Positions 22,043 through 37,636 of a stretch of DNA of 64,000 nucleotides are shown in pieces. The position numbers were made by a program, and so were the translations under genes. Positions within the stretch are counted from its first letter, which is position 1, and every line of letters begins with the position of its first letter. The stretch comes from Clostridia bacterium (GTDB lineage: Bacteria; Bacillota; Clostridia; Lutisporales; Lutisporaceae), in assembly GCA_035628995.1 (NCBI GenBank), contig DASPIR010000017.1:4651-68650 (forward strand), in the 5' to 3' direction. The notes beneath the pieces are model-generated. The model was given only the letters and a program-made list of their open reading frames with translations. It was not told the DNA's origin and did not search any database.

Positions 22043-22687
22043 ATGAAGGATAATTGTAAACAAATGGCTTATGATTATTTATACAATTCCATAATAACCA
22101 ATCAACTAAAGCCGGGACAACCTGTTATCGAACAGGAAATATCCGACAACCTCGGAACCAGCCGTACCCCTGTACGAGAAGCGTTGAAACAATTAGAGTC
22201 AGAGGGTTTAGTTCGTCATATGCCTGGAAGAGGTGCATTTGTCTCTGAAGTCACCACAGAAGATGTAGAAGAGATATTTGTGTTAAGGGAAATGTTGGAA
22301 GTACTTGCGCTGCAAGTTGCATGGAAAAAAATTGGGGATGAAGAAATAAATAAAGCAGAACAGTTTCTTTCATCACTAGATTCAAATTGTTCTATAGATG
22401 ACTTCTATAAGAGTGACAGGATGATTCATGATTTAATAGTACGTAATGGTAATAATCGCAGACTTGAGGGCTTTCTAAACAATATTAATGCTCAAATAGA
22501 GAGGATAAGGATACTTTCATCATTAACTCCTCAGCGCCTTGGCAAATCCAAAGCAGAGCATCTTGAAATCATTAGCGCTATGAAGGAAAGAAATTTAGAG
22601 AAGACTGAGGAGTTATTGCGAGTTCATATAAATAATGTTAAAGAGAGTGCAATAGAAGTTTGCAGAAGTATGAGATATAGTAGGTAA
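22043..22687 (+). CDS. GntR-family (FadR/FCD subfamily) transcriptional regulator
   Basis: ..ISDNLGTSRTPVREALKQLESEGLV.. wHTH plus a helical FCD-like C-terminus. Confidence 0.85.
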   Translation: MKDNCKQMAYDYLYNSIITNQLKPGQPVIEQEISDNLGTSRTPVREALKQLESEGLVRHMPGRGAFVSEVTTEDVEEIFVLREMLEVLALQVAWKKIGDEEINKAEQFLSSLDSNCSIDDFYKSDRMIHDLIVRNGNNRRLEGFLNNINAQIERIRILSSLTPQRLGKSKAEHLEIISAMKERNLEKTEELLRVHINNVKESAIEVCRSMRYSR

Positions 22688-22715
22688 AATTATGCTTTTT
22701 TACCTTAAATTGTCC

Positions 22716-22735
22716 ACAGATTGTATACAATCTGT
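22716..22735. promoter_or_regulatory. candidate GntR operator (20-bp perfect palindrome)
   Basis: ACAGATTGTA|TACAATCTGT lies between the gntR stop (22687) and the AcnX start (22832). Confidence 0.55.
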
Positions 22736-22831
22736 CGGCAAGGAATATATTTATTTTTGGAGGTGATGATGTGAGGTTCTGCTCACAGGAATCAAATTTA
22801 TTTGGAATACAACAGAGAAAGGAGGATATGT

Positions 22832-24070
22832 ATGCGATTAACAAATGAAGAAGAACGGATGTTAGAAGGTAAATATGGGTATCCTGTGCAAAAAGCAATG
22901 GAAATCCTTGTGAAGTTAGGTGAAATTTATAATGCTGAAGAGATGCTTCCAATATCCAGCGTACATATGCCAGGAGCATCAGCAGTAGTTGCTGGTGAGG
23001 CGGCAACTAAATTTGTAGAAATGATGGCTGAAAAAGGAGGAAAATTCAGAGTATTTACAACTTTGAATACTGCAGCTATTGACTTTGAATTTTGGAAAGA
23101 AATCGGTTACCCAGAAGATATATATAAATTGCAAAACAGGCTTACTCGCGCATATGAAGCTATGGGAGGGATAGCCTGCCACTCATGTACGCCTTATCTA
23201 ATAGGAAACAATCCCCGACTTGGAGAAAACATAGCTTGGGGTGAATCATCAGCGATTGCTTTTGTCAATTCAGTACTTGGAGCTCGGACAAACCGACACG
23301 GAGGTCCATCAGCACTTGCAGCTGCACTTACTGGACGTGTTCCTGCGTACGGGTATCATCTTCAGGAAAATAGGTATGGGCATATATTGGTTAATGTGAC
23401 AACGGTATTGAATGGTATAGATGATTATGGCAGCTTGGGTTACTGGGTTGGAAAAATTGTAGAGAGCAAAGTACCTGTCTTTACTGGTATTCCTAAAGAT
23501 GTAACTAATGATCAGCTTAAGATGCTTAGTGCTGCCCTAGCTTCATCAGGTTCTGTTGCATTATTTCATGTAGTAGGTATTACTCCGGAAGCACCTACTG
23601 TAGATGCTGCTTTTGGAGGACGACAACCTGAGCTGGTGCTTGAGTTTGGGAAGAATCAATTAATGGAAGGTCAGAATTCTCTAAATAAACAGCAAGGGCA
23701 AGAAATTTCACTGGTAACAATCGGATGCCCACATGCATCAATCTCCGAAATCGGGACGATTGCTAAAATGCTTGCCAATAAAAAGTTACATGCCGGAGTA
23801 GAATTGTGGGTAATTACTGCAATGCCAAACAAAATTTACGCAGAACGATGCGGCTATAAGGGAATTATCGAAGCTGCAGGAGGTCATATAATTAGTGATA
23901 CTTGTCCGATTCTTTCGCCTATGGCTTATGTAGCTAAGGAAAAAGGATATACGGCCATCGCTACAAATTCTGCAAAATTAGCACATTATGCTCCGGGGCA
24001 ATGGGCACTCCCAACCTATTATGGTAGCATGGAGAGATGCATAAATGCCGCTTTGAACGGCAGATTTTAA
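22832..24070 (+). CDS. aconitase X catalytic (large) subunit, DUF521 family
   Basis: MRLTNEEERMLEGKYGYPVQKAMEILVKLGEIYNAEEMLPISSVH.. is the typical AcnX N-terminus. ATG at 22832 follows GGAGGA. Confidence 0.85.
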   Translation: MRLTNEEERMLEGKYGYPVQKAMEILVKLGEIYNAEEMLPISSVHMPGASAVVAGEAATKFVEMMAEKGGKFRVFTTLNTAAIDFEFWKEIGYPEDIYKLQNRLTRAYEAMGGIACHSCTPYLIGNNPRLGENIAWGESSAIAFVNSVLGARTNRHGGPSALAAALTGRVPAYGYHLQENRYGHILVNVTTVLNGIDDYGSLGYWVGKIVESKVPVFTGIPKDVTNDQLKMLSAALASSGSVALFHVVGITPEAPTVDAAFGGRQPELVLEFGKNQLMEGQNSLNKQQGQEISLVTIGCPHASISEIGTIAKMLANKKLHAGVELWVITAMPNKIYAERCGYKGIIEAAGGHIISDTCPILSPMAYVAKEKGYTAIATNSAKLAHYAPGQWALPTYYGSMERCINAALNGRF

Positions 24071-24091
24071 GGATGCGGAGGGAAATGAACT

Positions 24092-24493
24092 ATGCAAATT
24101 ATTAAAGGTCGTAAAGTAATTGGCGGCAAAGCAAAGGGGGAAGCTTTAGTAACCTCTGAGCCAATATGTTTTCTTGGTGGTATAGATGTAAAGACAGGGC
24201 AGGTTACGGAAGTAGGCCATCCTCTATATGGTAAAAGTATTGCGGGGAAAATATTAGTATTTCCTACAGGAAAGGGTTCTACAGGAGGTTCTTATTTAAT
24301 ATATGAAGCAGCATCCAACGGTGTAGGTCCAGCAGCTATGATTAATTATAATGTTGAACAGGTTACTGCCATTGGCTGCATCATAGCGGAGATTCCCCTG
24401 ATAGATCAAGCAGAGCTTGACCCCATAAAGCTTATAAAAGATGGTGATTGCGTAGAAGTGGATGCAGATGCAGGAACCATCACTATATTATAA
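24092..24493 (+). CDS. aconitase X swivel-domain (small) subunit, DUF126 family
   Basis: ..GRKVIGGKAKGEALVTSEPICFLGGIDVKTGQV..GKILVFPTGKGSTGGS... Confidence 0.85.
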   Translation: MQIIKGRKVIGGKAKGEALVTSEPICFLGGIDVKTGQVTEVGHPLYGKSIAGKILVFPTGKGSTGGSYLIYEAASNGVGPAAMINYNVEQVTAIGCIIAEIPLIDQAELDPIKLIKDGDCVEVDADAGTITIL

Positions 24494-24511
24494 AGAGAGG
24501 TAGAATGGAAT

Positions 24512-25174
24512 ATGCCGTTTGAACAATATCGAGCACGACTAGAGAAGCTATCCTCAACAAATATTGCTGATGCATTGGATACATACGGTCTAAAGGGTGC
24601 TACCTATGGAATTCGTCCTATTTGGGAAGGTGCAAGTAAAATAGTTGGAGAAGCGGTTACGGTTAAATTGATAGCAGCTGGGCTGACAAAGGGTAAGAAT
24701 CATCTAGGAGTTAAAGCCATCGATGCGGCTAAGGCCGGGGATGTAATAGTAGTCGATAACGGCGGACGATTGGACACTTCATGCTGGGGTGGAATTTTGG
24801 CCAATGGAGCAAAGATGAAGGGCGTAAATGGAGTAGTAATTGATGGGGCATGTCGTGATGTAGATGACTATGTAGATATCAAATTCCCTGTATACTCAAG
24901 GGGTTCTGTTGTAGCAACTGCACGTGGAAGGATTATGGAAGAAGCAACTAATATAATGATTCAATTTGCAGGTGTTCAAGTCCGACCTGGAGATATAGTA
25001 TTTGGTGATCGCAGTGGAGTTGTAGTTATTCCTGCGGAAAAACTGGAAGAAGTTTTAGTAAAAGCTGAAGAACTTTATGAAAAAGAGGAAGCTATGATTT
25101 CTGAAATACGTGCAGGAAAGTCTATGCTTGAAGTAGATAATAAATACAGTTATGAAAAGATGCTCAGTAAGTAA
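24512..25174 (+). CDS. RraA-family protein (HMG/CHA aldolase or oxaloacetate decarboxylase type), paralog 1
   Basis: ..TNIADALD..GDVIVVDNGG..CWGGILANGAKMKGVNGVVIDGACRD... Confidence 0.8.
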   Translation: MPFEQYRARLEKLSSTNIADALDTYGLKGATYGIRPIWEGASKIVGEAVTVKLIAAGLTKGKNHLGVKAIDAAKAGDVIVVDNGGRLDTSCWGGILANGAKMKGVNGVVIDGACRDVDDYVDIKFPVYSRGSVVATARGRIMEEATNIMIQFAGVQVRPGDIVFGDRSGVVVIPAEKLEEVLVKAEELYEKEEAMISEIRAGKSMLEVDNKYSYEKMLSK

Positions 25175-25199: not shown

Positions 25200-25838
25200 A
25201 TGGTAAATAGAGAAGAGATAGAGCAGTTCAGTAAACTTCCCACAGGCAATGTTTGTGATGCCAATAACAAAAGTGGAAATATGGATTTTAATATTAAGCC
25301 TATAGACAAAAAAAGCAAGCTGGTAGGGCCTGCTGTTACAGTAAGATGCCAGCCTGGAGATAACTTGATAATACATGAAGCTATATATAGGGCACAACCT
25401 GGCTCGGTTCTCGTTATCGACGCTCATGGCTACACAGGTGCAGGGCCAATGGGAGAAATAGTAGTTATAGCTTGTCAGGAAAGAGGTATTGCGGGCATCG
25501 TAGTTGATGGTACATGCCGTGATGCAAACGATATCGAGGAATTGTGCTTCCCATTTTTCTGCAGAGGCTTTAATCCTGGCGGTACGGTAAAAGAAAGCTG
25601 GGGAACTATTAACGAAACTATTCAATGTGGTGGTGTAGTAGTTAACCCAGGCGACATAGTCGTTGGAGATGTGGATGGAGTAGTAGTTGTTCCTAAGGAA
25701 AAAGCGGCAGAAGTTTTGAACAAGGCAGCGGCTATAGCGGAAAAGGAAATTAAGGTAAGGGAAATGCTTCGCCAAGGGAAGACGACTCTTGAAATATATG
25801 GTTTTGACAAGGTTATTGAACAAAAAGGATATAAGTAG
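25200..25838 (+). CDS. RraA-family protein, paralog 2
   Basis: ..GNVCDANN..GSVLVIDAHG..GEIVVIACQERGIAGIVVDGTCRD... Confidence 0.8.
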   Translation: MVNREEIEQFSKLPTGNVCDANNKSGNMDFNIKPIDKKSKLVGPAVTVRCQPGDNLIIHEAIYRAQPGSVLVIDAHGYTGAGPMGEIVVIACQERGIAGIVVDGTCRDANDIEELCFPFFCRGFNPGGTVKESWGTINETIQCGGVVVNPGDIVVGDVDGVVVVPKEKAAEVLNKAAAIAEKEIKVREMLRQGKTTLEIYGFDKVIEQKGYK

Positions 25839-25848
25839 GAGGGGTAAT

Positions 25849-26520
25849 ATGAATAGCGTACCCAAAATTGATCTATCAATTATTGAAGCCTTCAAGGAGC
25901 TTGATACTACTAGTGTTTCTGACGCTTTGGATCGCCTTGGTATAACAGGGGGGCTCCTGGGCATTAAACCTGTAGTTGCTGATACTGCAATTTGTGGACA
26001 GGCATTTACAGTGCACTACGTTCCATGCGGTAATGTGAAAGGAACTGTAGGGGATTTTCTTGATGATGTTGAGCCTGGTCAGGTAGTGGTAATAGATAAC
26101 TCTGGCCGTGATTACTGTACTGTATGGGGAGACTTAATGTCAATAAGATCAACACGAATGGGTGTGGCAGGAACGGTTATTGACGGAGTATGCAGAGATA
26201 TACCTGCAATAAAGAAAATAGGATATCCAATTTTTACAAAGGGAACCTACATGGTTACTGGCAAGGACAGGGTTTATGTAGATGCAGTGAATGTGCCTGT
26301 TTCTATCTCCGGAGTTCAAGTTAAAGCTGGTGATATCATTATTGGAGATGAGACAGGAGTTCTGGTAGTTCCTATGGAGAGAGCAGGGGAAGTTCTTAAA
26401 GTATCACAGGAGATTGCTCAGAAAGAAGCTTTTATAGAAGAAGCAATTAAAAATGGATCTACACTGAGAGATGCCCGCGCTAAAGCAGGTTATCACCAGT
26501 TGCAGACACGCAAGGATTAG
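25849..26520 (+). CDS. RraA-family protein, paralog 3
   Basis: ..TSVSDALD..GQVVVIDNSG..VWGDLMSIRSTRMGVAGTVIDGVCRD... ATG at 25849 follows GGAGGGG. Confidence 0.8.
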   Translation: MNSVPKIDLSIIEAFKELDTTSVSDALDRLGITGGLLGIKPVVADTAICGQAFTVHYVPCGNVKGTVGDFLDDVEPGQVVVIDNSGRDYCTVWGDLMSIRSTRMGVAGTVIDGVCRDIPAIKKIGYPIFTKGTYMVTGKDRVYVDAVNVPVSISGVQVKAGDIIIGDETGVLVVPMERAGEVLKVSQEIAQKEAFIEEAIKNGSTLRDARAKAGYHQLQTRKD

Positions 26521-26569: not shown

Positions 26570-27859
26570 ATGAAAGATTTAAGTGTAAAACTAGGACCAT
26601 TAACTCTAAAGAATCCAATAATAGCTGCAGGTGGACCTCTGGCTGGCACGGTTGGACATATCAAAGACTGTGTAGATGCAGGCTTCGGAGCTATAGTGAC
26701 TAAAACTGCGTCTACAGTATGGTACCTGCAGAGATATCCAAGACCATTATATAAATTAATAGATTACAAAAAAGATAATAATAACGCATACTTCGTTCCG
26801 AATGACTATAACTGGATGCATAGAGAGCATAACTCGGTTTATCCTCCAAAACAGTTTGCGAAAATCATAAAAGAAGCTGCTCCTTATGCTAAGGAACATA
26901 ATTGTTCTATTATAGGAAGTTATTCTGCAAGATTCATGGAAGAATGGGTTGAGATAGCGAAACTCTATGAGGAGGCTGGGTGTGCAGCATTAGAACTGAA
27001 CTTCTGTTGTCCTTTCCCTCCTGAAGGATTAGCTAAGAGCCCGGATGATGTAAGAGTAGGTATTCACTACACAAAACATCCTGAAGAGGGAGTAGCGATA
27101 GTAAAGAAATTAAAAGAATTTGTGAAGATACCAATGTTCGTAAAGATGAGTCCTGACGGTTCAAACTTTGAACAGGTGGCTAAGATGCTTGAAGAGGCAG
27201 GAGCAGACGGGGTAACAATGTTTGCCAATAATAAGGTTATGAGAGTTGATATAGAGACAGGCAAACCTATTGCCTATGGCCCAGCACCAGGTACAGGCCC
27301 GGGGGTTAAGGCTCTAAGTTTAAGATGGGTAGCAGAGGTTTCTTCTAAGTGCGATTTTGCAGTTATGGGGAACCGCGGGGCTTCATCTTGGCAGGATGCT
27401 ATTGAATTCTTAATGTCCGGAGCTTCAGCAGTACAGTATTGCACACCTGTTATGATTCGAGGATTGGTTTATGTAAAAGAACTTCTTGACGGAATGGAAA
27501 AGTTTATGGAAAGAAGAGACTATAACAGTATAAACGAGTTCCAGGGCGTAGCGATGAGACAAATGTACAGCAATCAAGAACTCGTTGACAAAGTTAAGGC
27601 TCTATATGCTGAGGTTGATTATAGTAAATGTACAGGTTGTAAACGCTGCAGTCAGGTATGCTGGTATGATGCAATAAAAGTGGCAAAGAAAGCAATAATT
27701 AAGAAGCAACATTGTGCAGGTTGCAGCTTGTGTAGCCAGGTATGTCCCGTGAATGCAATTTCCATGCATGAAAGGGAAAATGATATTGAACATTTCCAAG
27801 CTATGGCTTCTGCGCATCCAGAGCTGGTACCGGACTTTTTTCCGGATGGAGAAAAATAA
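26570..27859 (+). CDS. dihydroorotate/dihydropyrimidine dehydrogenase (PreA)-like flavoenzyme with C-terminal 2x[4Fe-4S] domain
   Basis: ..LKNPIIAAGGPLAGT..GFGAIVTKT.. TIM-barrel N-terminus. C-terminal CTGCKRCSQVC and CAGCSLCSQVCP. Confidence 0.75.
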   Translation: MKDLSVKLGPLTLKNPIIAAGGPLAGTVGHIKDCVDAGFGAIVTKTASTVWYLQRYPRPLYKLIDYKKDNNNAYFVPNDYNWMHREHNSVYPPKQFAKIIKEAAPYAKEHNCSIIGSYSARFMEEWVEIAKLYEEAGCAALELNFCCPFPPEGLAKSPDDVRVGIHYTKHPEEGVAIVKKLKEFVKIPMFVKMSPDGSNFEQVAKMLEEAGADGVTMFANNKVMRVDIETGKPIAYGPAPGTGPGVKALSLRWVAEVSSKCDFAVMGNRGASSWQDAIEFLMSGASAVQYCTPVMIRGLVYVKELLDGMEKFMERRDYNSINEFQGVAMRQMYSNQELVDKVKALYAEVDYSKCTGCKRCSQVCWYDAIKVAKKAIIKKQHCAGCSLCSQVCPVNAISMHERENDIEHFQAMASAHPELVPDFFPDGEK

Positions 27860-28902
27860 TGAGGAAGTATACTATTGCACTTATCCCAGGTGATGGTATT
27901 GGAGAAGAAGTAATTGCAGCGGCTAAAGAAGTTCTTGAGGTAGTACAGGCTAATTCGGGAGACTTCAAACTTGAATTTGAGGTGTATCCTGCAGGGCAGG
28001 AAACATATCAAAGGTTAGGCAAAGCATTGCCTCAAGAGACTCTAGATGGGATAAGGAACACCGATGCTGCTCTTATTGGTGCACTCAATGCTAATCCAGC
28101 GCCGGCACCAAGCCCGGTAGGACAAATGCGGAAAGAACTTGATTTATATGCAGATGTTCGTCCGGTGATGTCCTGGCCAGGGGTATGGAGTTTAAAGCCC
28201 GGTATTGATCTTATTTGTATACGAGAGAATACAGAAGGATTCCTTGCAGATCGCAACTTGCATATGGGTAACGGAGAGTTCATGCCTACGGAGGATGTTG
28301 TAATGTCAGTCAGAGTACTGACACGACAAGGCTCTGAAAGAATTGCCAAATATGCTTTTGAGCTTGCTCGTAAGCAAAATCGAAATAAGATTACAGTAAT
28401 ACACAAAGCTAATGTCCTTAGAAAGGGCTGTGGTTTCTTTCTCGAAATTGTAAGGGAAATAGCAAAAAGTTATCCGGATATAGAACTTACAGATGAATAT
28501 GTAGACAATACTGCGAACCAACTTATCTTATGCCCGGAGAAATATGACATAATACTTGCGACAAATTTATTTGGAGATATTATTTCCGATGAAGCTGCAG
28601 CACTAGTATCAAATCTGGTACCATCAGCGAACATAGGTAAGGACTGTGCCGTATTTTCACCGGTGAATCATGATGGGAGAATGAGTGAAGCAGGGAAAGA
28701 TATAGCGAACCCATTAGTTCACATAATCTGCGCTGCTATGATGCTCGAACATCTCGGGGAGAAGGAAGCAGGTCAGACTATCTATAAAGCTGTAAAATCA
28801 GTTCTCGCAGATGGTGTGTTAAAGCCTCGGGATTTAGGAGGGAATAGTAGTACCTCCCAAATAACATCGGCAATATGTCATAGAATAGCCGGAAATAATT
28901 AA
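27859..28902 (+). CDS. isocitrate/isopropylmalate dehydrogenase-family beta-decarboxylating dehydrogenase
   Basis: ..YTIALIPGDGIGEEV..NLFGDIISDEAA... Its start overlaps the previous stop (TAATG). Confidence 0.85.
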   Translation: MRKYTIALIPGDGIGEEVIAAAKEVLEVVQANSGDFKLEFEVYPAGQETYQRLGKALPQETLDGIRNTDAALIGALNANPAPAPSPVGQMRKELDLYADVRPVMSWPGVWSLKPGIDLICIRENTEGFLADRNLHMGNGEFMPTEDVVMSVRVLTRQGSERIAKYAFELARKQNRNKITVIHKANVLRKGCGFFLEIVREIAKSYPDIELTDEYVDNTANQLILCPEKYDIILATNLFGDIISDEAAALVSNLVPSANIGKDCAVFSPVNHDGRMSEAGKDIANPLVHIICAAMMLEHLGEKEAGQTIYKAVKSVLADGVLKPRDLGGNSSTSQITSAICHRIAGNN

Positions 28903-30193: not shown

Positions 30194-30674
30194 AGCTAAG
30201 GTTTGGAAATATGGCAAGAACATTGATACGGAAGAAATCTATCCGGCAAGGTATTTAGTTCATTTTGATCCTAAGGAAGTAGCTAAGCATGCTATGGAGG
30301 ATATCGATCCTCAATTCTCCCAGCGTGTTAAGCCTGGAGATATTATTGTAGCAGGAGATAATTTTGGATGTGGCTCCGCAAGAGAGCAGGCAGCCATGAC
30401 TCTGAAGTATGCAGAAGTAGGTGCAATAATAGCAGACTCTATCTCTAGAGCATTTTATAGGAATTGTGTAAATAACGGACTGCCCGTTCTTGCTATGGAA
30501 GGGATTTCAGAAAAAGTCAACGAGGGTGACGAGCTCGAGGTTGATTTAGAACAGGGAATTATCGTCAACCATACAACTGGAACGCAGTGGAAGACAAAAC
30601 CTGCTCCAAAGCTCATACTCGATATCATATCAATGGGTGGAGCTATAGCGTATTATAAAAAGAATTTGAAATGA
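30186..30674 (+). CDS. aconitase-family dehydratase small subunit (LeuD/HacB-like)
   Basis: ..GDNFGCGSAREQA... An 8-nt overlap with the large subunit. Confidence 0.85.
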   Translation: MIRAKVWKYGKNIDTEEIYPARYLVHFDPKEVAKHAMEDIDPQFSQRVKPGDIIVAGDNFGCGSAREQAAMTLKYAEVGAIIADSISRAFYRNCVNNGLPVLAMEGISEKVNEGDELEVDLEQGIIVNHTTGTQWKTKPAPKLILDIISMGGAIAYYKKNLK

Positions 30675-30720
30675 TGTCCTACATATATATTTGAACTTAT
30701 TTAGGAAAAGGAGGAGCCAA

Positions 30721-32148
30721 ATGCCTAAAAGCTTAAGAAGTTATCTGGAAACACTTCAGACATTGTGTCCTGAAGAAGTAGTTGAGGTAAAGAAAGAAGT
30801 AGTTCCTAAGTTTGAAGCTACTACATTTTTAAGGAAATTAGAGTTGGAAGGCCGTTCACCTATGGCAGTCTTTCCACATGTACAGAACCTATATGGGGAA
30901 AAATCCGAGGTGGCATTGGGATTCAATGCTTTTGCTAGTCGAAAGAAACTTGCGGTGGCACTTGATCTTAAGCCCGAGCAGTACAAGATGGAGCCTGTAC
31001 TAGAATTGGCAAAACGTTATCGCAATCAAGGGATAGTTGAAGTAATAAAGCCTGAGGATGCTCCTGTAAAAGAAGTTATAAAGAAGGGTGAAGAAGTGGA
31101 TTTATATAAGCTTCCTATCCCCACTCATCACTCAAAGGATGGCGGTCCATATATATTAGGCGCGTCCACTGCTATGAGAAATCCAGAAACAGGGGTATAT
31201 AACCTTGCTATGCTTAGACTTCATGTTAAAAGTAAAAATAGAACTACTATACATGCCGAGCTTAACCATCATTCCGGTATGATTATAAGTTCAAATCGTG
31301 AGGCAGGAAAAGAGACTCCTATAGCTATTGTAGTAGGACATCACCCTACTTTCTATCTAGGCAGCCAATGGGAAGGCCCTTATGGAAGAGATGAATACGA
31401 AATTGCCAGTGCGGCTATGGGTGAAACATTAAGAGTAGTTCCTTCAGAAACATGGGGTGAAGACTTCATGGTTCCTGCGGATGCTGAGATGATAATTGAA
31501 GGTGTTGTTTCATCTGATGAAGTTGATGAGGAAGGACCCGTAGGAGAACATACACGCTATTATAAGACAATACGTGGGGGCAAAATAGATAAAAGGCTTG
31601 ACCCGGTGGTAAAGATTACTGCTATTACTTATAGAAAAAATGCAATATATTTATCAAATAATATGGCGCATTCAGACCAAGGCTTCATAGGCTCACTACC
31701 CAAGGAAGCGGTAATCTATGAAAGAGCAAAGGGCTGCTGCCCAGGCGTAACTGCCGTATACCTAACACCAGGCGGAGTGTGCCGCTATATTTGCTATATA
31801 TCGCTTAAACAGCGTGTTGCTGGTGAGGCAAAGGATGCAATAATGGCTTCCTTCATCAGTGATTGGCATATAAAGTTTGCTGTTGCTGTTGATGAAGATG
31901 TAGATATATTCAGTGATCAGGAAGTTCTCTGGGCTATTGCCACAAGAACCCAACCCCACCGCAGATTTTTCATAATTCCTGAGGCTATGGGGGCTAGCTT
32001 GGATCCGACAGTAAGTATGGAATCATCAAAACCCGTGACTTCGAAGATGGGGATTGACGCAACGAAACCGTATGGCGAGCCTTTTTCAGAAGTATGTGAA
32101 GTTCCGCTTGATCTGCTTCAACAGATTCGCCTTGAAGATTATATTTAA
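30721..32148 (+). CDS. UbiD-family (prFMN-dependent) decarboxylase
   Basis: 475 aa with the typical UbiD N-terminus (..LRSYLETL..EEVVEVKKEV..) and length. ATG at 30721 follows GGAGGAG. Confidence 0.8.
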   Translation: MPKSLRSYLETLQTLCPEEVVEVKKEVVPKFEATTFLRKLELEGRSPMAVFPHVQNLYGEKSEVALGFNAFASRKKLAVALDLKPEQYKMEPVLELAKRYRNQGIVEVIKPEDAPVKEVIKKGEEVDLYKLPIPTHHSKDGGPYILGASTAMRNPETGVYNLAMLRLHVKSKNRTTIHAELNHHSGMIISSNREAGKETPIAIVVGHHPTFYLGSQWEGPYGRDEYEIASAAMGETLRVVPSETWGEDFMVPADAEMIIEGVVSSDEVDEEGPVGEHTRYYKTIRGGKIDKRLDPVVKITAITYRKNAIYLSNNMAHSDQGFIGSLPKEAVIYERAKGCCPGVTAVYLTPGGVCRYICYISLKQRVAGEAKDAIMASFISDWHIKFAVAVDEDVDIFSDQEVLWAIATRTQPHRRFFIIPEAMGASLDPTVSMESSKPVTSKMGIDATKPYGEPFSEVCEVPLDLLQQIRLEDYI

Positions 32149-32237
32149 GCTCAAAACGGTGAAAGAAAGGAGGAGGGAAAACTACTGGCGGGTTATATCT
32201 AAATAGAAATAAATGAATTTAAGGGAGGTCAAAATTG

Positions 32238-33269
32238 ATGAAACTTAACAAGAAAAAAATTGCGCTTGTTACACTGTTTGTCTTTTTATTAGGCTCTATT
32301 TCATTAGTAGGTTGTGCACCTAAACCAGCTGTTGAGGGAACCGCACCAGCTGTGGAGAAAACTGCAAGTTCAGACTACCCATCCCGACCAGTAACTATGC
32401 TTATCCCTCATAAAGCAGGCAGCAGTACTGACATTATGGCTCGTGCTTTACAACCGTATCTTCAGAAGTATCTTGGTGAAAAAGCATCTGTCGTTATAGA
32501 AAATGAAGGCGGTGGCGGAGGTAATGCTGCTCATGTGAAAACTTACAAAGCAGCTCCGGATGGATATACTATTGAAATGTCCGCATTCCCTTCTGTTACA
32601 CTTGGCGAGCTTGTTAAGGGTGGAGAGTTTAAAGCTTTGGAATATACATACTTGCATACTGTAACCGGTGGTGATTATAACGGTATTTTCGTAAAGTATG
32701 ATTCTCCATACAACGATATTAAGAGCTTAGTAGAAGCAGCAAAAACCAAAAAGATTACAATGTCAGGCTCAGGAATTGGCACAAATGGTCATATGGCTAT
32801 GAAACTATTGGAAAAGTCATCAGGTACTATATTTGAATATGTATCTTATGACGGCGGAACAGAAGCAGCTGTAGCTGTGGCTGGCGGACACACTGTAAGC
32901 GGTGTAGGAAATATCGTATCTCTAAAACAAATGGTAGACGAAAAGAAAATTAAAATATTGGCTGTTATTGGTGCGAATAGACATCCAAATTATCCGGATG
33001 TTCCAACTGCTGTTGAAGCAGGATATACAGATGCAGCCATGGATGTTTGCGTTGGCGTATACGCACCTCCAAGCCTGCCTGCTGATATAGCAAAGGCGTT
33101 GGAAGATGCTTTAAGCAAGGCTGTAAACGATCCTGAATTTAAGGCACAAGCTGAAAAGTTAGGTTCAAGTATTGTACCGCTAGGCTCAGCAGAGTTTAAA
33201 AAATTAGCTGAAAACATCTATAATCAAGCAAATATGGTAAAAGACGATCTTAAGGAAACTACGAAATAA
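32238..33269 (+). CDS. tctC: tripartite tricarboxylate transporter substrate-binding lipoprotein (Bug/TctC family)
   Basis: Lipobox ..SLVGCAP.. and ..YPSRPVTMLIPHKAGSSTD... Confidence 0.85.
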   Translation: MKLNKKKIALVTLFVFLLGSISLVGCAPKPAVEGTAPAVEKTASSDYPSRPVTMLIPHKAGSSTDIMARALQPYLQKYLGEKASVVIENEGGGGGNAAHVKTYKAAPDGYTIEMSAFPSVTLGELVKGGEFKALEYTYLHTVTGGDYNGIFVKYDSPYNDIKSLVEAAKTKKITMSGSGIGTNGHMAMKLLEKSSGTIFEYVSYDGGTEAAVAVAGGHTVSGVGNIVSLKQMVDEKKIKILAVIGANRHPNYPDVPTAVEAGYTDAAMDVCVGVYAPPSLPADIAKALEDALSKAVNDPEFKAQAEKLGSSIVPLGSAEFKKLAENIYNQANMVKDDLKETTK

Positions 33270-33354: not shown

Positions 33355-33834
33355 ATGAATATCACATCCCATGCAAATCGAAAGAAACTAGTAGACAGAT
33401 TATTCACAATAGCAATTATCGTTCTCTTTACTATCGTTATTGTGATGACATTTTCATTATCCGAGACAGCGGGGAGTGTACCAAGACTAATCAGTATAAT
33501 TGGAATTGTACTATCTGTCATTACGCTAGTTAAAGACTTTAAACAAAATGATGGTAAACCAAAAAATAATGATGCTGCTTCGGATGAAAATCAGGGAATG
33601 TCTTTTATAAAGTGCTTTGGCTTGTTGATAGCATATTTAGCAGCAATGGTTGTATTGGGATTCGCTATATCCACCTGCCTAATGTTATTTTTTATACCGA
33701 TATTCCTGAAATACAGAAACCTTAAAATCAATATAATCTTCTCTGTTATAACAACAGCAGTTCTTTACTTTAGCTTCACATACTTATTCTACGTTCGCTT
33801 GCCGGTCGGTATTCTGTTCGAGTTATTTTTATAG
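33355..33834 (+). CDS. tctB: tripartite tricarboxylate transporter small membrane subunit (TctB family)
   Basis: 159 aa, 4 TM, positioned between tctC and tctA. Confidence 0.7.
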   Translation: MNITSHANRKKLVDRLFTIAIIVLFTIVIVMTFSLSETAGSVPRLISIIGIVLSVITLVKDFKQNDGKPKNNDAASDENQGMSFIKCFGLLIAYLAAMVVLGFAISTCLMLFFIPIFLKYRNLKINIIFSVITTAVLYFSFTYLFYVRLPVGILFELFL

Positions 33835-33846: not shown

Positions 33847-35337
33847 ATGGAAAACATGATGTCTGCAATAACTAATATATTCTCTGTGACTAATGTGTTG
33901 TATTTGATTATCGGATCAGTAATTGGACTTGTCATTGGTGTGTTGCCTGGGTTGGGTCCGGTTTTTGGCACAGCTTTAGTATTACCATTTACTTTTGGTA
34001 TGAGTGCTGATTCAGCGTTAATTCTCCTGAGTGCAGTTTATGCATGTACTGCATATGGAGATGGTATTACTTCAATCCTCTTAAATGTGCCCGGTGGACC
34101 GGGAGGAGTGGCTCTTACATTTGACGGATATCCTCTTACACGTAAGGGTAGAGCGGCTGAAGCCCTGGGAGCTCTGGTTGGCTCATCCTTCATTGGCGGG
34201 TTAATAGGGGTTCTTGCATTAATATTTATTGCACCTCCTATGGCAGAGTTCTCATTAAAGATTGGGCCGGCTGAATATTTTATGCTTGCTATGTTTGGTT
34301 TATCAATGGTAGCTGTAGCCGGAAAGGGTGATACGGCAAAAGGACTCATTCTCGGCTGTTTGGGTTTGCTCTTTTCCTTTGTAGGGATGGATGTAATTAC
34401 AGGAGCAGAAAGGTTCACTTTCGGCAGTAATTTCTTAGAAGACGGGATATCGACTGTAAGTGCCACAATAGGACTGTTTGCCCTTTCTCAAGTGTTTATA
34501 CTTGCAGAAGAAGGCGGCACAATAGCAGGTGAATTTACTCTGGCAACTAAGCCCTGGAAAGGAATTAGTGCTACATTAAAGTACTGGTATGTTACATTAC
34601 GCTCATCTATACTCGGGGTTTGCATAGGCATGGTACCAGGAATAGGAATATCTACGGCTAGTATGTTGTCTTACGTAGCTGAGAAGAGGATGGCAAAAGA
34701 TCCTGAGACTTATGGAGAGGGTAATATTAGAGGTATTATTGCTCCTCAGGCAGCTTCAAATGCTTGTACAAGTGGAGAACTTATTCCTGCTTTCGCACTG
34801 GGAATACCGGGAGGTGCTACAGCTGCTATATTTTTGGCTGCAATGACCTTACATGGTCTCAGACCTGGTCTTAGTTTCTTTACATCAGGTGGTGTGTTGG
34901 TTGATACAGTTTTTCTGGGAATGATTTTGGCACAATTTGTTATTTTGTTTTTTGGATTAACAGCTACACCGCTATTGGCAAAAATCACAAAAGTTCCAAA
35001 TGCAATCTTAGTGCCAATAATTGTAGCTCTTTGTTTTGTAGGGGCATTCGCAGTAAATAATAATATTGAAGATGTGGTTGTTGCTATGGTTTTTGGAGTT
35101 ATAGGATATGTACTGTTCAAGAATAAATGGCCTGTACAGTGCCTAGTTCTTGGCTTGGTACTGGGTGAGATCGCTGAGAGCAACTTCCACCGTGCACTGC
35201 AAATCTCAGACGGATCATACGGCATATTTGTGCAGAAACCCATTTCTCTGATTTTATTTATTGCAATTATTGCAATTTTAGTGTGGACTTATTGTGGGGG
35301 CATAATTAAAGCAAAAATGCAAAATGCAAAAGCTTAA
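33847..35337 (+). CDS. tctA: tripartite tricarboxylate transporter large membrane subunit (TctA family)
   Basis: 496 aa polytopic protein (..GVLPGLGP..LNVPGGPG..GMVPGIG..). Confidence 0.85.
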   Translation: MENMMSAITNIFSVTNVLYLIIGSVIGLVIGVLPGLGPVFGTALVLPFTFGMSADSALILLSAVYACTAYGDGITSILLNVPGGPGGVALTFDGYPLTRKGRAAEALGALVGSSFIGGLIGVLALIFIAPPMAEFSLKIGPAEYFMLAMFGLSMVAVAGKGDTAKGLILGCLGLLFSFVGMDVITGAERFTFGSNFLEDGISTVSATIGLFALSQVFILAEEGGTIAGEFTLATKPWKGISATLKYWYVTLRSSILGVCIGMVPGIGISTASMLSYVAEKRMAKDPETYGEGNIRGIIAPQAASNACTSGELIPAFALGIPGGATAAIFLAAMTLHGLRPGLSFFTSGGVLVDTVFLGMILAQFVILFFGLTATPLLAKITKVPNAILVPIIVALCFVGAFAVNNNIEDVVVAMVFGVIGYVLFKNKWPVQCLVLGLVLGEIAESNFHRALQISDGSYGIFVQKPISLILFIAIIAILVWTYCGGIIKAKMQNAKA

Positions 35338-35407: not shown

Positions 35408-36544
35408 CTATTTTTTTATCTGAAAACAGTTGACTTCACTAATTATATGCTGTAGGTTTTGAAAATCGGTACGCTGAATTTGAAATAAAAAGGATTCTCG
35501 TTGTTTCGGTATTTGGAGCTTTCCATTCACTATTCGAGGGTTACCTTTTAAAGTACTTTCAGACGGTATTTGTATGAGTTCAACATTGCCTTTATCTTTC
35601 AAAGTGTCGAGAATCTTGTCTCCTTTTTCGTTATTGCTTAAAATCAACGATACACCAAGATCATTTTTGTATTCCTTTGGTACACCCCAATAATCTGCAA
35701 GTGTTAGGTCTCCCTGCCTGGGCATACTGCAAAAGGAACAACTGTAGCAGGCATCATTTAAATATAAATCGCTAAGGAATCCAACTAAGAAGGGGTCTTG
35801 TCGAAAAGTATCTGAATAACTGCTTCCATCAGTAAAATCAATTGATATTCGGAATTTGGACCAGCCGTTTTCTTTATTGCGAAAGTTAATAGATTTAGCG
35901 GTACGTGAGTTACTTACATATTCCAGATATCTATGAAAAACGATGATGGAAGGTGTGCCGTGACAAACAAGATCGATGGTTATGAGATTTTCACTATCGA
36001 CAAATTTATGGAGGGCTGCTACCTGACAAGGTAAACCGGAAAACAAAACAGTCCTACCGTTTCTGACCATTTGAGAAATTTCCTTATAAGTTAACCCAAT
36101 ATTACTTTGGAGATATTTAGAGCCCTGGAATGGCAGCAATTCCTGCTTGGATTCTGCTTTTGCATGACAAAGAGTCCAGTCGGATTTCCATCTTACTCCA
36201 TATACAATGCCGCTCCAGTCTAAAATAGTATTTGCTATCTCAGTAAAGATTCCACCGGAGGAGCTATTTTTTCGTAAAGCATTATTTTTCGACCAGGCAG
36301 CATAAGACAGAATATTAGCTTCAGTTCTATTTATAGGAGAAGCGGATGTATTTCCAAGTGTCGGGCATTTTATGGAACATAGACCGCAATTATTGCAACG
36401 GCTTGTAACTATTTCTGGTCTATAAAAACCATATGGCGATAATTTCATTTTTATGGCATTGTTAGGACATGCATTGTAACAGGCGAAACAACCTGTGCAC
36501 TTATCATATGGTAACATGGCCACGGTGTTATTATTAAGATGCAT
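35408..36544 (-). CDS. FrhB-family (coenzyme F420 hydrogenase/dehydrogenase beta-like) flavo-iron-sulfur protein
   Basis: N-terminal CTGCFACYNACP and CNNCGLCSIKCP, then the ..SSSGGIFTEIA.. FrhB-type flavin-binding region. Confidence 0.7.
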   Translation of the reverse strand: MHLNNNTVAMLPYDKCTGCFACYNACPNNAIKMKLSPYGFYRPEIVTSRCNNCGLCSIKCPTLGNTSASPINRTEANILSYAAWSKNNALRKNSSSGGIFTEIANTILDWSGIVYGVRWKSDWTLCHAKAESKQELLPFQGSKYLQSNIGLTYKEISQMVRNGRTVLFSGLPCQVAALHKFVDSENLITIDLVCHGTPSIIVFHRYLEYVSNSRTAKSINFRNKENGWSKFRISIDFTDGSSYSDTFRQDPFLVGFLSDLYLNDACYSCSFCSMPRQGDLTLADYWGVPKEYKNDLGVSLILSNNEKGDKILDTLKDKGNVELIQIPSESTLKGNPRIVNGKLQIPKQRESFLFQIQRTDFQNLQHIISEVNCFQIKK

Positions 36545-36695
36545 ATCAGTACCTCACTAGTATAGTTGTAATATGTATATTTTAACATGTTTTGCTGCTT
36601 GAACAATAGTATATAGGATAAGTTCTGCACAGGCTATGATATACTTGAGAAAGTATATATGAATTATTCGTAGCAGTTTTTGTTCGTAGAAAGGA

Positions 36696-37259
36696 GTGTC
36701 AGGTTTGAAAATCATAGTAGGAATAAGTGGTGCTTCAGGTGCCATATATGGAATAAGGCTACTGGAGGAATTGAAAAAAAGAAAGATTGAAACCCATTTA
36801 ATAATGAGTAAGTGGGGTGCAGTAACTATTACTAAGGAAACCGATTTTTCAGTGGAATGGGTAAAGTCCCTTGCTGATAAAGTATATGGAGAAGACGATG
36901 TGAGCGCAGCAATATCCAGTGGCTCTTTTCAAACTAACGGAATGATTATAGCTCCTTGCAGCATGAAGACTCTGAGTGGAATTGCTAATGGGTATGCAGA
37001 GGATCTGTTGATCAGGGCAGCTGACGTTTGTATAAAGGAAAGGCGAAAACTTATTCTAGTAGCTAGGGAAACACCTCTAAATTCTATACATCTAGAAAAT
37101 ATGTTGAAGCTCTCGCGAATTGGAGTTGAAATTATGCCTCCGGTTCCAGCTTTCTATTCACGCCCTCAAACCCTTGATGATATTGTTAACCATACAGTAG
37201 GCCGAATCATGGATCATATCGGTATAGAAAACCAACTCTTTACAAGGTGGGAGGGGTAG
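36696..37259 (+). CDS. ubiX: flavin prenyltransferase UbiX
   Basis: ..KIIVGISGASGAIYGIRLLE..IAPCSMKTLSGIANGYA... The start may instead be the in-frame TTG at 36705. Confidence 0.9.
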   Translation: MSGLKIIVGISGASGAIYGIRLLEELKKRKIETHLIMSKWGAVTITKETDFSVEWVKSLADKVYGEDDVSAAISSGSFQTNGMIIAPCSMKTLSGIANGYAEDLLIRAADVCIKERRKLILVARETPLNSIHLENMLKLSRIGVEIMPPVPAFYSRPQTLDDIVNHTVGRIMDHIGIENQLFTRWEG

Positions 37260-37261
37260 TG

Positions 37262-37636
37262 ATGTTATCCCAAATTTATGAAAGCGTTGAAGATGGAAGA
37301 TATTCTCTTGAAGCCTTACTTGTGATAACAGATGATGGTATCATGTTATATGTAGGTGGGGGAGATAAACCGCATATAGGAACCGTAGTTGTAAGCCAGC
37401 CTCGTCCAAGTATGAAAGTTGACAATGGTGTCAGCTGTACCACTTCAGTAACAAACATGTTATCACATAAAGACGACTTAATAATAGTCCCCATAGCTGA
37501 GGCCGTTTGCAAAAAAGCAAATACAGTAGTTGCAGCCTCGGGAGGGGTTCATATTGACGATGCGGAAGCCTTTGATATAAAAAGATTGATGGATAATATG
37601 GAAGAAATAACAAAAAAGATATTAATAAAACTTTAA
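37262..37636 (+). CDS. small protein coupled to ubiX, possibly an LpdD-like prFMN-decarboxylase accessory subunit
   Basis: 124 aa, adjacent to ubiX (its ATG follows the ubiX stop within ~2 nt, behind GGGAGGGG). Motif ..YVGGGDKPHIGTVVV... The assignment rests on position, size and recollection of lpdB-lpdD type operons. Confidence 0.45.
   Translation: MLSQIYESVEDGRYSLEALLVITDDGIMLYVGGGDKPHIGTVVVSQPRPSMKVDNGVSCTTSVTNMLSHKDDLIIVPIAEAVCKKANTVVAASGGVHIDDAEAFDIKRLMDNMEEITKKILIKL

Follow-up and report, generated by a model that had tools for sequence, protein, structure and literature searches.

The trans-anhydromevalonate 5-phosphate (tAHMP) decarboxylase AMPD is an enzyme of the UbiD family. In archaea it is paired with aconitase X (AcnX) (PMC11052028). 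Both known AcnX reactions, like those of serine dehydratases, act on beta-hydroxy acids, the serine and cis-3-hydroxyproline dehydratases yielding 2-imino or 2-oxo acids (PMC8184944), and the bacterial AcnX types IIc to IIf carry the landmark residues of neither known function and are uncharacterised (Watanabe et al. 2021, PMC8184944). In this article, we describe a bacterial locus of 15 kb in which AcnX and UbiD genes stand together with genes for three RraA-like proteins, a PreA-like oxidoreductase, enzymes resembling LeuCD and isopropylmalate dehydrogenase (IPMDH), and a TctCBA importer. The locus occupies positions 22043-37636 of a stretch of 64,000 nucleotides (hereafter the window) from a Clostridia bacterium of the family Lutisporaceae (assembly GCA_035628995.1, contig DASPIR010000017.1, positions 4,651 to 68,650 of the forward strand). 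We conclude that this gene set is a real functional unit and not a chance juxtaposition, and we consider it moderately probable that it is a GntR-controlled operon through which a branched hydroxy- or unsaturated tricarboxylate resembling citrate is imported and catabolised independently of coenzyme A (CoA).

Several described systems share parts of this gene set. In the archaeal mevalonate steps, as in the locus, AcnX has two subunits, its Fe-S ligands and its catalytic Ser/Thr, Glu-Ser-Ser, Lys and Tyr are identical, and a decarboxylase of the UbiD family and UbiX go with it, and the conversion of a beta-hydroxy acid through an enoate to an alkene and CO2 that we propose here would follow the same logic. 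The locus differs from them in that Asn53 of AcnX is replaced by Val, other mevalonate genes are missing, the genes form a bacterial import operon with a GntR regulator, and UbiD is nearest to HmfF. The lower pathway of protocatechuate 4,5-cleavage and gallate degradation (LigI, LigJ/GalB, LigK/GalC) resembles the locus in having an aldolase/decarboxylase whose model, for 4-carboxy-4-hydroxy-2-oxoadipate (CHA) aldolase/oxaloacetate decarboxylase, is passed by RraA2, in having next to it a hydratase or dehydratase for a citrate-like tertiary alcohol, and in ending at pyruvate, which is predicted here. However, the locus has no homologues of LigI, LigJ or GalD, its hydro-lyase is AcnX (in related loci also PrpD or a protein resembling the alpha chain of serine dehydratase, SDH-alpha), it carries three RraA paralogues, and the protocatechuate/gallate pathway has no role for UbiD, the PreA-like enzyme, LeuCD or IPMDH.

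With the citramalate (pyruvate) pathway to 2-oxobutyrate and leucine synthesis, the locus shares a LeuCD with a YLV-x loop and an IPMDH lacking gamma-carboxylate binders, whereas its enzymes fall below the equivalog cut-offs, a condensing enzyme is missing, and the genes form an inducible import operon for which a catabolic direction is predicted. The nicotinate fermentation of Eubacterium barkeri employs the reductase Hnr, the SDH-like dehydratase Hmd, the LeuCD-like hydratase DmdAB and the lyase Dml. Its series of a flavo-Fe-S ring or enoate reductase, an Fe-S dehydratase, a LeuCD-type hydratase and a pyruvate-forming lyase, every step free of CoA, has its counterpart here; in contrast, the lyases of the locus are RraA-like and not isocitrate-lyase-like, and UbiD and IPMDH are extra. 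A nicotinate fermentation cluster was rejected on the grounds that the molybdenum hydroxylase, enamidase and B12-dependent 2-methyleneglutarate mutase families are all absent from the cluster. An initial annotation of the window, made from its sequence alone, had held that the gene set matches no described pathway, and our full-text literature searches returned no paper linking these families. What appears to be new is the combination; each enzyme family is known, and the type of operon, consisting of a regulator, an importer and catabolic enzymes, is ordinary.

Methods

Related loci came from three sources: one genome per species, scanned with an alignment of UbiD orthologues; metagenome contigs, scanned with an alignment of the PreA-like protein; and contigs encoding several UbiD and AcnX homologues. 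The proteins of the window were mapped onto all loci by tblastn, giving a set of 33 non-redundant loci of at least 12 kb (numbered L001 and so on), most of which are metagenome-assembled genomes (MAGs) or metagenome contigs and some of which come from related species. Seeding genes are present by construction in the loci that they seeded; cross-checks on non-seed genes weigh more. The labels RraA1, RraA2 and RraA3 in related loci denote best tblastn hits. Arguments about residue roles in LeuD, IPMDH, RraA and UbiD rest partly on background literature.

Results

At least seven of the nine enzyme functions are found in 25 of the 33 loci. Of the 14 genome loci seeded with UbiD, 12 have the PreA-like gene and, reciprocally, UbiD is present in 11 of the 14 metagenome loci seeded with the PreA-like protein, in nine of them at 55% identity or more. 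The hosts represent Bacillota, Spirochaetota, Acidobacteriota, Synergistota and others, at least five phyla, and include Clostridia, Peptococcaceae, Desulfosporosinus, Oscillibacter and other Oscillospiraceae, Caproicibacter, Treponema primitia ZAS-10, Terracidiphilus and Synergistaceae. The genuine unit that had been proposed is thus borne out across phyla, and the description of the cluster as an orphan has to be given up, as it recurs in many genomes. The label "anaerobic" also proves too narrow: an orthologous cluster, 62-74% identical and accompanied by a porin and an NCS2 permease, is found on Terracidiphilus-like contigs of Acidobacteriota (L028, 3629-14519, and L081).

The strongest sign that the genes serve one conserved pathway is that unrelated families substitute for each other in the same slot. 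The dehydratase beside the RraA genes is AcnX in 20 loci, MmgE/PrpD in six and SDH-alpha-like in seven (an assignment made by a weak Pfam match of 29.7 bits), a few loci having two of them. The importer slot is filled by the tripartite tricarboxylate transporter (TTT), CitMHS, an ABC transporter with a Peripla_BP_6 binding protein, DUF401, MFS or NCS2, and an OadA-like carboxyltransferase takes the usual position of RraA in L008 and L025.

The order of the genes varies among loci; RraA1, RraA3 and the PreA-like gene are contiguous in almost all. In Oscillospiraceae (L009, L013, L015, L040, L068, L082) the set is split into two adjacent units, each headed by a GntR gene, one with the order LeuC-LeuD-RraA2-IPMDH and the other with AcnXL-AcnXS-RraA1-RraA3-PreA-UbiD-transporter-UbiX, so that RraA2 goes with LeuCD and IPMDH. 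A resolution of the cluster into sub-operons with known functions, which the initial annotation had envisaged as a refutation, is therefore seen only as far as the split itself: the two modules are adjacent, and neither of them is a known pathway. In one split cluster of this type (L082, 15820-18950) a CitMHS importer is followed by an alpha/beta-hydrolase, which might act on a precursor as a lactonase or esterase, and UbiX. Minimal clusters also occur, consisting of an isochorismatase-family hydrolase, both AcnX subunits, UbiD, DUF401, UbiX and LpdD (L007 and L022) or of both AcnX subunits, UbiD, a transporter, UbiX and LpdD, with the isochorismatase-family hydrolase not in view (L018). UbiX is present in 20 of the 33 loci, and the UbiX-LpdD pair recurs in L001, L002, L007, L018, L025 and L031.

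The FrhB-like gene of the window, by contrast with its inclusion in the set by the initial annotation, is accessory, because it is restricted to the closest relatives (L001, L002, L031, L032); its product is possibly an electron donor to the PreA-like enzyme. As a separate observation from a single locus, the region directly downstream of the cluster in L026 (11977-21440) encodes an isochorismatase, a BKACE protein, HyuA, HyuB and gamma subunits of the acetone-carboxylase type, an iron-containing alcohol dehydrogenase and a second UbiD, and the pathway might release a ketone in that organism.

The cluster is headed by a regulator gene (22043-22687, + strand; Pfam GntR 63 bits, FCD 79 bits), and a GntR/FCD gene stands in this place in 23 of the 33 related loci. 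A perfect 20-bp palindrome, ACAGATTGTATACAATCTGT, lies between gntR and acnX at 22716-22735 and is the predicted GntR operator of the operon. A related palindrome, ATTGTCGACAAT, upstream of gntR at 22002-22013, is likely an autoregulation site, and this motif is found at the equivalent position in L002, L032, L033 and L034. The core of the operator, ATTGTATACAAT, recurs in the gntR-acnX gap with no mismatch in L001 and L017/L037, one in L031, and two in L002/L032 and L014, the background of the motif at up to two mismatches being 0.088 sites per kb. In Caproicibacter (L017/L037) the core is kept though GntR is only 56% identical. With a winged helix-turn-helix, an FCD domain and a conserved inverted repeat at its own and its target promoter, the regulator would belong to the FadR subfamily, and the operator data support a single GntR-controlled, autoregulated operon. 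Two database proteins of 646 aa (P0175, P0176) join GntR and FCD domains to the AcnX catalytic domain; they are either real regulator-enzyme fusions or artefacts of gene calling across the short gntR-acnX gap. Divergent from gntR lies a gene for a methyl-accepting chemotaxis protein (20053-21765, - strand; 4HB_MCP, HAMP and MCPsignal domains), the place of which is occupied in L031 by a protein 74% identical. The link is weak, and the protein is possibly a chemoreceptor for the same substrate.

Behind gntR follow 13 co-directional genes with successive gaps of 21, 18, 25, 10, 49, -1, 13, -8, 46, 86, 85 and 12 bp. The 17 open reading frames listed in the initial annotation were all recovered at or near their coordinates, and the open reading frame map, Pfam and NCBIfam agree with the families named there. 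Four starts were corrected to ATG codons with GGAGG upstream (AcnXL from 22802 to 22832, RraA3 from 25789 to 25849, UbiD from 30691 to 30721 and TctC from 32235 to 32238), because Shine-Dalgarno sequences and the lengths of homologues (412 aa and 475 aa) agree; AcnXL has an exact 412-aa match in the database protein P0121. The word "island" that had been applied to the locus is not reflected in composition, since its GC content of 0.39-0.43 does not differ from that of the flanks. An Rfam scan found no riboswitch or other known RNA element within the cluster, and no CoA ligase, transferase or thioesterase is encoded in it.

The first enzyme is a predicted Fe-S dehydratase made of an AcnX large, catalytic subunit (22832-24070, + strand; PF04412, 482 bits) and a small, swivel subunit (24092-24493, + strand; PF01989, 110 bits; 7cnr_B, 122 bits). 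Its nearest solved relative is TkAcnX, an archaeal phosphomevalonate dehydratase (7cnr, 271 bits), with cis-3-hydroxyproline dehydratase at 224 bits. Aligned with TkAcnX, the large subunit keeps the three cluster cysteines (in SCTPY, GCPHAS and DTCP), the Glu-Ser-Ser of WGESSA and the Lys and Tyr of ATNSAKLAHY; in the small subunit the catalytic Ser-Thr in GKGSTGGSY is kept and Val64 is Gly. The residues that bind carboxylate and hydroxyl groups are likewise retained. Separate PF04412 and PF01989 subunits, Fe-S ligands and catalytic residues together argue for AcnX type II, the two-subunit form. The residues at the substrate landmarks exclude both known functions as far as sequence can tell. 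The phosphate-binding Asn53 is Val and the neighbours contain no mevalonate-pathway families, which speaks against a phosphomevalonate dehydratase (type IIb); the position of the amine-binding Asp203 is Pro, that of Thr72 is Gly, and the score with NF051439 is 307 vs a cut-off of 700, which speaks against a cis-3-hydroxyproline dehydratase.

The UbiD-family decarboxylase, which would use prenylated flavin mononucleotide (prFMN), is encoded at 30721-32148 (+ strand; UbiD_N, UbiD and UbiD_C domains) between leuD and tctC, at gaps of 46 and 86 bp. N171, R176, E281 and E286, which stand for the Asn that binds metal and prFMN, the catalytic Arg and the E-x4-E motif of the family, are invariant in 27 orthologues, and we take them to correspond to N168, R173, E277 and E282 of Fdc1. 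The nearest solved relative is HmfF (6h6v, 250 bits), well above UbiD, AroY and Fdc1, and the protein is accordingly placed on an HmfF-like branch. In HmfF, His296/297 sets furan specificity; the window and its clade have Gln at this position, and elsewhere among the orthologues it is either His or Gln, with His in many of them. Identity with HmfF, a decarboxylase of 2,5-furandicarboxylate (FDCA), was rejected, the 6h6v match being only 250 bits, the His being replaced by Gln in the window, and hmf genes being absent, their place as partners taken by tricarboxylate enzymes.

UbiX (36696-37259, + strand), the flavin prenyltransferase predicted to supply UbiD with the reduced cofactor prFMNH2, scores 277 vs a cut-off of 109 with TIGR00421, and this score together with the domains and residues of UbiD assigns the pair to the UbiD prFMN family. 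The small gene that had been seen as coupled to ubiX does overlap its end and is translationally coupled to it; its product (37247-37636, + strand, 129 aa; PF21758, LpdD_chaperone, 104 bits) can now be placed, by this domain and by the overlap, in the LpdD family of predicted prFMNH2 chaperones. The LpdD family binds prFMNH2 and helps to activate UbiD enzymes (PMC10865409), and the presence of UbiX and an LpdD-type chaperone alongside UbiD is a feature that the locus shares with HmfF/HmfG and LpdBCD/VdcBCD (PMC10865409). The gene for the FrhB-like Fe-S flavoprotein (35408-36544, - strand; FrhB_FdhB_N/C and Fer4) lies between tctA and ubiX on the opposite strand, divergent from ubiX as described before and, in addition, convergent with tctA.

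The PreA-like protein (26570-27859, + strand; DHO_dh, 99 bits, and Fer4) combines a TIM barrel for flavin mononucleotide (FMN), of the type of dihydroorotate dehydrogenase (DHODH), with two C-terminal [4Fe-4S] clusters and is a predicted C=C oxidoreductase or allylic isomerase. The motif E[LI]NFCCPFPPEG (ELNFCCPFPPEG), nearly invariant in 15 orthologues, contains the catalytic Cys of DHODH and dihydropyrimidine dehydrogenase (DPD). The barrel, the two clusters and the Cys are also those of PreA; in contrast, the score with the PreA model NF006183 is 204 vs a cut-off of 335 and the cluster has no PreT-like gene, so that the NAD-dependent dihydropyrimidine dehydrogenase PreA/PreT was rejected. 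UbiD and the PreA-like gene are adjacent or overlap in clusters of the Oscillospiraceae type.

The LeuC-like large subunit (28916-30193, + strand; Aconitase, 317 bits) and LeuD-like small subunit (30186-30674, + strand; Aconitase_C) would form a hydro-lyase. LeuC is matched by subfamily models only, its score with the LEU2 equivalog being 477 vs a cut-off of 611. Identity with the LeuC/LeuD of the leucine pathway was rejected because the equivalog cut-offs are missed; the proteins are instead paralogues resembling isopropylmalate isomerase. The specificity loop of LeuD reads YLVH in the window; most orthologues have YLV[H/L/Y/S/I] there, and Arg occurs in none. The loop reportedly reads YLV-Y/M for hydrophobic substrates and YLRT, with Arg, for gamma-carboxylates, as Jeyakanthan is said to have found in 2010, and, in work reported by Drevland and Jeyakanthan, homoaconitases use this Arg for the gamma-carboxylate. 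The loop is thus of the isopropylmalate isomerase type and not of the homoaconitase or aconitase type, judging by these residues.

The IPMDH-family protein, a paralogue among the beta-decarboxylating dehydrogenases (27859-28902, + strand; Iso_dh, 280 bits), falls under every NCBIfam equivalog cut-off, the best scores being 329 vs 540 for AksF2 and 226 vs 353 for LeuB. Its substrate loop (PSPVGxLRK, PSPVGQMRK) is without the Asn/Arg that bind the gamma-carboxylate in isocitrate and homoisocitrate dehydrogenases. With equivalog scores too low and Asn/Arg absent, the identities of 3-isopropylmalate, isocitrate, homoisocitrate and tartrate dehydrogenase were all rejected. Because the LeuD loop lacks Arg and the IPMDH loop lacks Asn/Arg, the substrate of the two enzymes probably has an uncharged side chain.

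The three RraA paralogues, RraA1 (24512-25174; PF03737, 142 bits), RraA2 (25200-25838; NCBIfam NF006731, 185 vs a cut-off of 179; 3NOJ, 138 bits) and RraA3 (25849-26520; PF03737, 129 bits), all on the + strand, keep Arg123, Asp124 and Glu199 of the Pseudomonas 4-hydroxy-4-methyl-2-oxoglutarate (HMG)/CHA aldolase. Because these catalytic residues are kept, the paralogues are, by prediction, enzymes and not regulators of RNase E. RraA2 also keeps Thr145 and Lys147, has Glu at position 102, and is the most LigK-like of the three; by residues and model score it alone would qualify as an HMG/CHA aldolase-oxaloacetate decarboxylase of the LigK type. RraA1 is predicted to be a lyase or decarboxylase of 2-oxoacids that depends on Mg; its position 102 is Gly and its positions 145/147 are Arg/Arg across orthologues, and RraA3 keeps D102 and has Lys/Arg at 145/147. 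Both score below the cut-offs of models of the NF006731 type, and they may bind more anionic substrates.

The importer consists of the solute-binding lipoprotein TctC (32238-33269; PF03401, 138 bits), the small membrane subunit TctB (33355-33834; PF07331, 72 bits) and the large membrane subunit TctA (33847-35337; PF01970, 444 bits), all on the + strand, and thus has all three components of a TTT such as the TctCBA citrate importer, with a predicted role in ligand uptake. The N-terminus of TctC, MKLNKKKIALVTLFVFLLGSISLVGC, carries a lipobox, the lipoprotein signal of Gram-positive bacteria. Unlike the other likenesses to citrate import, TctC is remote from the characterised binding proteins, its matches to solved Bug/TctC proteins not exceeding 117 bits, so that solved homologues are uninformative about the ligand. 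The TTT, CitMHS and DASS transporters and the presence of PrpD, of the 2-methylcitrate dehydratase family, in the slot of AcnX indicate a branched tricarboxylate.

Two other clues to the substrate were discarded. The NCS2 permeases of L005 and L028, which might have suggested a nucleobase-like compound, are only 24% identical. A 357-aa NicX-like protein, which might have suggested a dihydroxypyridine, is a remote relative of NicX (PDB 7cn3, E = 1e-4), and its gene is absent from the window; it recurs in PrpD-type variants (L005 14363-16135, L023 1-615, L054 6824-7894, L062, L065, L067), often with an isochorismatase-family amidohydrolase resembling RutB/BiuH. Candidate acids were also worked through as paper chemistry. 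Citrate, trans-aconitate, tricarballylate, hydroxycitrate, homocitrate and 2-methylcitrate were rejected as substrates that would use every conserved enzyme, and 3-hydroxy-3-methylglutarate, CHA, 4-oxalomesaconate, 2-pyrone-4,6-dicarboxylate, FDCA, chelidonate and dipicolinate likewise fail to use all of them, the shortfall showing above all where the whole RraA trio has to be used along with UbiD and the PreA-like enzyme.

The regions around the locus contain several further features. A trans-4-hydroxy-L-proline dehydratase cluster at 38246-46116 (- strand) comprises genes for a PatB-family C-S lyase (38246-39568), an M24 Xaa-Pro peptidase-like protein (39435-41219), the glycyl-radical enzyme HypD (41241-43601; NF043068, 1433 vs a cut-off of 1100), its radical-SAM activase (43605-44594) and a sigma-54 activator (44674-46116), all on the - strand. 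Fe-S and PAS domains are present in an [FeFe]-hydrogenase-like protein (14825-16558, - strand), behind which comes a SpoIIE-type phosphatase (13653-14828, - strand), and the two look like a sensory hydrogenase signalling pair. Because HypD and the [FeFe]-hydrogenase-like sensor are found in these surroundings, the host would be a strict anaerobe. Next to the locus lies queT (37743-38207), with a promoter at 37652-37681 that fits the sigma-70 consensus perfectly, a strong terminator at 38209-38245 and a full-length match to the PreQ1 riboswitch in between at 37687-37734 that is below threshold (18.2 bits vs a gathering score of 39; E = 0.2 in a search of 301 bp). The segment 54000-64000 has a GC content of 0.29-0.33, vs about 0.40 elsewhere, and a strong positive GC skew, a tRNA gene lies just upstream at 51586-51659, and this low-GC edge may be the boundary of foreign or differently expressed DNA.

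Discussion

The data show the gene content, its conservation, the operator, the conserved catalytic residues and the exclusion of the known AcnX, canonical leucine-pathway, PreA and HmfF identities; we infer the class of substrate, the sequence of the steps, which way the PreA-like step runs and what each RraA enzyme does. The logic suggested by the initial annotation, in which import is followed by dehydration, decarboxylation with prFMN, C=C reduction and aldol-type cleavage, still appears to be the most economical one, with substrate and order read from the gene set. The acid would be imported by TctCBA with the lipoprotein TctC, and an effector would free GntR from the ATTGTATACAAT operators. 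The two-subunit AcnX would dehydrate a beta-hydroxy-acid arm to an aconitate-like enoate, and UbiD, with prFMN made by UbiX and delivered by LpdD, would strip the carboxyl of that arm to leave a methylene or alkenyl group. The FMN/[4Fe-4S] enzyme resembling PreA would then saturate or shift the C=C bond, the LeuCD-like hydro-lyase would hydrate or isomerise an alkyl-maleate or alkyl-malate with an uncharged side chain, and the IPMDH-like enzyme would oxidise the product to a 2-oxoacid. Finally, the three RraA-like enzymes may catalyse Mg-dependent C-C cleavage of 2-oxoacids to pyruvate, by beta-decarboxylation of oxaloacetate-type intermediates, by retro-aldol cleavage or by both.

AcnX and UbiD apparently act consecutively, because minimal clusters consist of AcnXL, AcnXS and UbiD with few other genes, because AcnX keeps the catalytic residues and is nearest to phosphomevalonate dehydratase of archaea, and because archaea pair the two enzymes on the way from mevalonate 5-phosphate to isopentenyl phosphate. 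The conversion of a charged arm to an uncharged alkenyl group by the two enzymes fits the LeuD and IPMDH loops, and a route free of CoA is proposed because the cluster lacks genes for CoA ligases, transferases and thioesterases. The simplest instance would lead from citrate or aconitate through itaconate, citraconate and 3-methylmalate to 2-oxobutyrate, and we regard this particular series as doubtful. A bolder version, unlikely in our estimation and put forward tentatively, is a catabolic mirror of the archaeal mevalonate steps, in which AcnX would dehydrate a citrate-like acid, UbiD would form an itaconate-type exomethylene acid, the DHODH-like enzyme would shift or reduce its C=C bond as the type 2 isomerase IDI-2 does with isopentenyl diphosphate, and LeuCD, IPMDH and the RraA trio would finish the route without CoA.

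Several observations weigh against the catabolism of a citrate-like tricarboxylate as proposed here. The series from citrate to 2-oxobutyrate uses a single RraA-type step, leaving three paralogues unexplained, and it likewise leaves unexplained the near-invariant contiguity of RraA1, RraA3 and PreA. We know of no precedent for an allylic isomerase in the family of the PreA-like enzyme. The nearest characterised relatives of both UbiD (HmfF) and the PreA-like enzyme (DHODH/DPD) act on heteroaromatic rings, and the isochorismatase-family amidohydrolase and the NicX-like gene that recur in some variants hint at amide or N-heterocyclic precursors. In the Synergistaceae MAG of L029 (266-13600), three RraA genes and both AcnX subunits occur without the other cluster enzymes, followed downstream by Fer2_4, Pyr_redox_2, Fer4, BFD and DAO proteins (LhpBEF/opine-oxidase-like), aldehyde ferredoxin oxidoreductase (AFOR), an aminotransferase and pyruvate:ferredoxin oxidoreductase (PFOR); the arrangement suggests that an AcnX-RraA pair can function where UbiD is missing, and three RraA with AcnX may be a portable module of its own. 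The Terracidiphilus-like cluster (L028/L081), moreover, has no UbiD within 10 kb, so that UbiD there may be an optional entry step or be encoded elsewhere.

The fact that the dehydratase always stands beside RraA genes is also what would be expected of a route resembling the Entner-Doudoroff pathway for a 2,3-dihydroxy polycarboxylate (a tartrate- or hydroxycitrate-type acid or a branched sugar acid). The dehydratase would then turn a vicinal diol acid directly into a 2-oxoacid, which RraA enzymes would beta-decarboxylate and/or cleave by retro-aldol reaction to pyruvate and an aldehyde or glyoxylate, LeuCD and IPMDH would make a second, 4-hydroxy-2-oxoacid for RraA2, and UbiD and the PreA-like enzyme would serve entry or side branches. 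The L029 combination of three RraA and AcnX alone near AFOR and PFOR, the OadA-like oxaloacetate decarboxylase domain in place of RraA in L025, an HpcH/HpaI aldolase beside Iso_dh and LeuDC in L027, near a 44%-identical UbiD, and the extra Arg/Lys at 145 and 147 of RraA1 and RraA3, which would suit polyanionic 2-oxoacids, are all in keeping with it, as is the use of beta-hydroxy acids by known AcnX enzymes and serine dehydratases, some of which give 2-imino or 2-oxo acids (PMC8184944). Nevertheless, UbiD and the PreA-like gene are conserved as much as the rest and would have no necessary role, and side chains that bear a carboxyl group, as in hydroxycitrate, are disfavoured by the LeuD and IPMDH loops. 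PrpD-family enzymes are not known to make 2-oxoacids either, and on balance we think this route unlikely. The relationship of UbiD to the FDCA decarboxylase HmfF, with His or Gln at position 296/297, and of the PreA-like enzyme to DHODH/DPD points in another direction, to a route analogous to nicotinate fermentation that degrades a di- or tricarboxylate of a heteroaromatic ring (furan, pyrone or pyridone). UbiD would first remove a ring carboxyl, the PreA-like enzyme would reduce a ring C=C bond in the manner of DHODH, DPD and 6-hydroxynicotinate reductase, the ring would open spontaneously (O-heterocycles) or by an isochorismatase-type amidase (N-heterocycles), and the branched aliphatic product would pass to the dehydratase, the LeuCD-type hydratase, IPMDH and the RraA lyases. 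The adjacency or overlap of UbiD and the PreA-like gene in Oscillospiraceae-type clusters, the recurrent RutB/BiuH-like isochorismatase-family and NicX-like genes, the NCS2 permeases of L005 and L028 and the functional parallel with Eubacterium barkeri are consistent with such a route, yet the window cluster and most relatives are without a C-N or lactone hydrolase, no ring-opened product of FDCA, chelidonate or 2-pyrone-4,6-dicarboxylate was found to need both LeuCD and IPMDH, the two NCS2 permeases share only 24% identity, the transporters are mostly of tricarboxylate type, and PrpD and AcnX point to citrate-like aliphatic substrates. We therefore rate it as rather improbable.

Two further explanations would deny the cluster a catabolic pathway of its own. 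The genes might merely be neighbours, that is, leucine-type LeuBCD, a phenolic-acid decarboxylase like VdcBCD/LpdBCD, a citrate importer and RraA regulators of RNase E; each family is common by itself, UbiX and LpdD stand apart behind a gene of the opposite strand, and Oscillospiraceae have two GntR-headed units. Co-occurrence across five or more phyla despite variable gene order, LeuC, LeuD and IPMDH scores below all equivalog cut-offs with no leuA, the position of UbiD between leuD and tctC at 46- and 86-bp gaps, RraA paralogues that keep the aldolase catalytic residues, and a conserved, shared GntR operator make this very improbable. A biosynthetic module, either a bacterial copy of the archaeal mevalonate steps or a 2-oxoacid chain elongation, is harder still to credit. 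AcnX type II is nearest to TkAcnX, AcnX, UbiD and UbiX stand together as in archaea, and LeuCD and IPMDH are chain-elongation enzymes, but the phosphate-binding Asn53 is Val, the cluster is without mevalonate kinase, isopentenyl phosphate kinase, the synthase or reductase for 3-hydroxy-3-methylglutaryl-CoA and an acetyl-CoA condensing enzyme, and the presence of an importer, a GntR/FCD regulator and a chemoreceptor is what one typically sees in catabolism. For the substrate of the CoA-free catabolic operon that we favour, a (hydroxy)tricarboxylate, one of the classes named in the initial annotation, is retained, the residue data favouring a citrate-like acid; the aromatic alternative offered there is dropped as far as benzene polycarboxylates are concerned, and a heteroaromatic dicarboxylate is carried as a rival.

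Conclusions

The locus would define a widespread, CoA-free catabolic pathway of nine enzymes that has apparently not been described. It gives a genomic handle on the roles of the bacterial two-subunit AcnX subclasses, which are unassigned in PMC8184944, on the role of HmfF-like UbiD in bacteria that do not degrade furans, and on RraA-fold proteins outside the lignin-degrading proteobacteria. If the mirror of the archaeal mevalonate steps is true, a function would be assigned for the first time to the bacterial AcnX subclasses of types IIc-f, and bacteria of guts, soils and sediments, anaerobes among them, would have a new route to and from metabolites of the itaconate type. If the substrate is an acid abundant in plants or hosts, for instance an aconitate, an analogue of citrate or a precursor of itaconate, the pathway would be of importance to the flow of carbon in guts, termites, soils and sediments. 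It would also supply oxygen-independent, CoA-free enzymes for the conversion of tricarboxylates to C4 and C5 building blocks.

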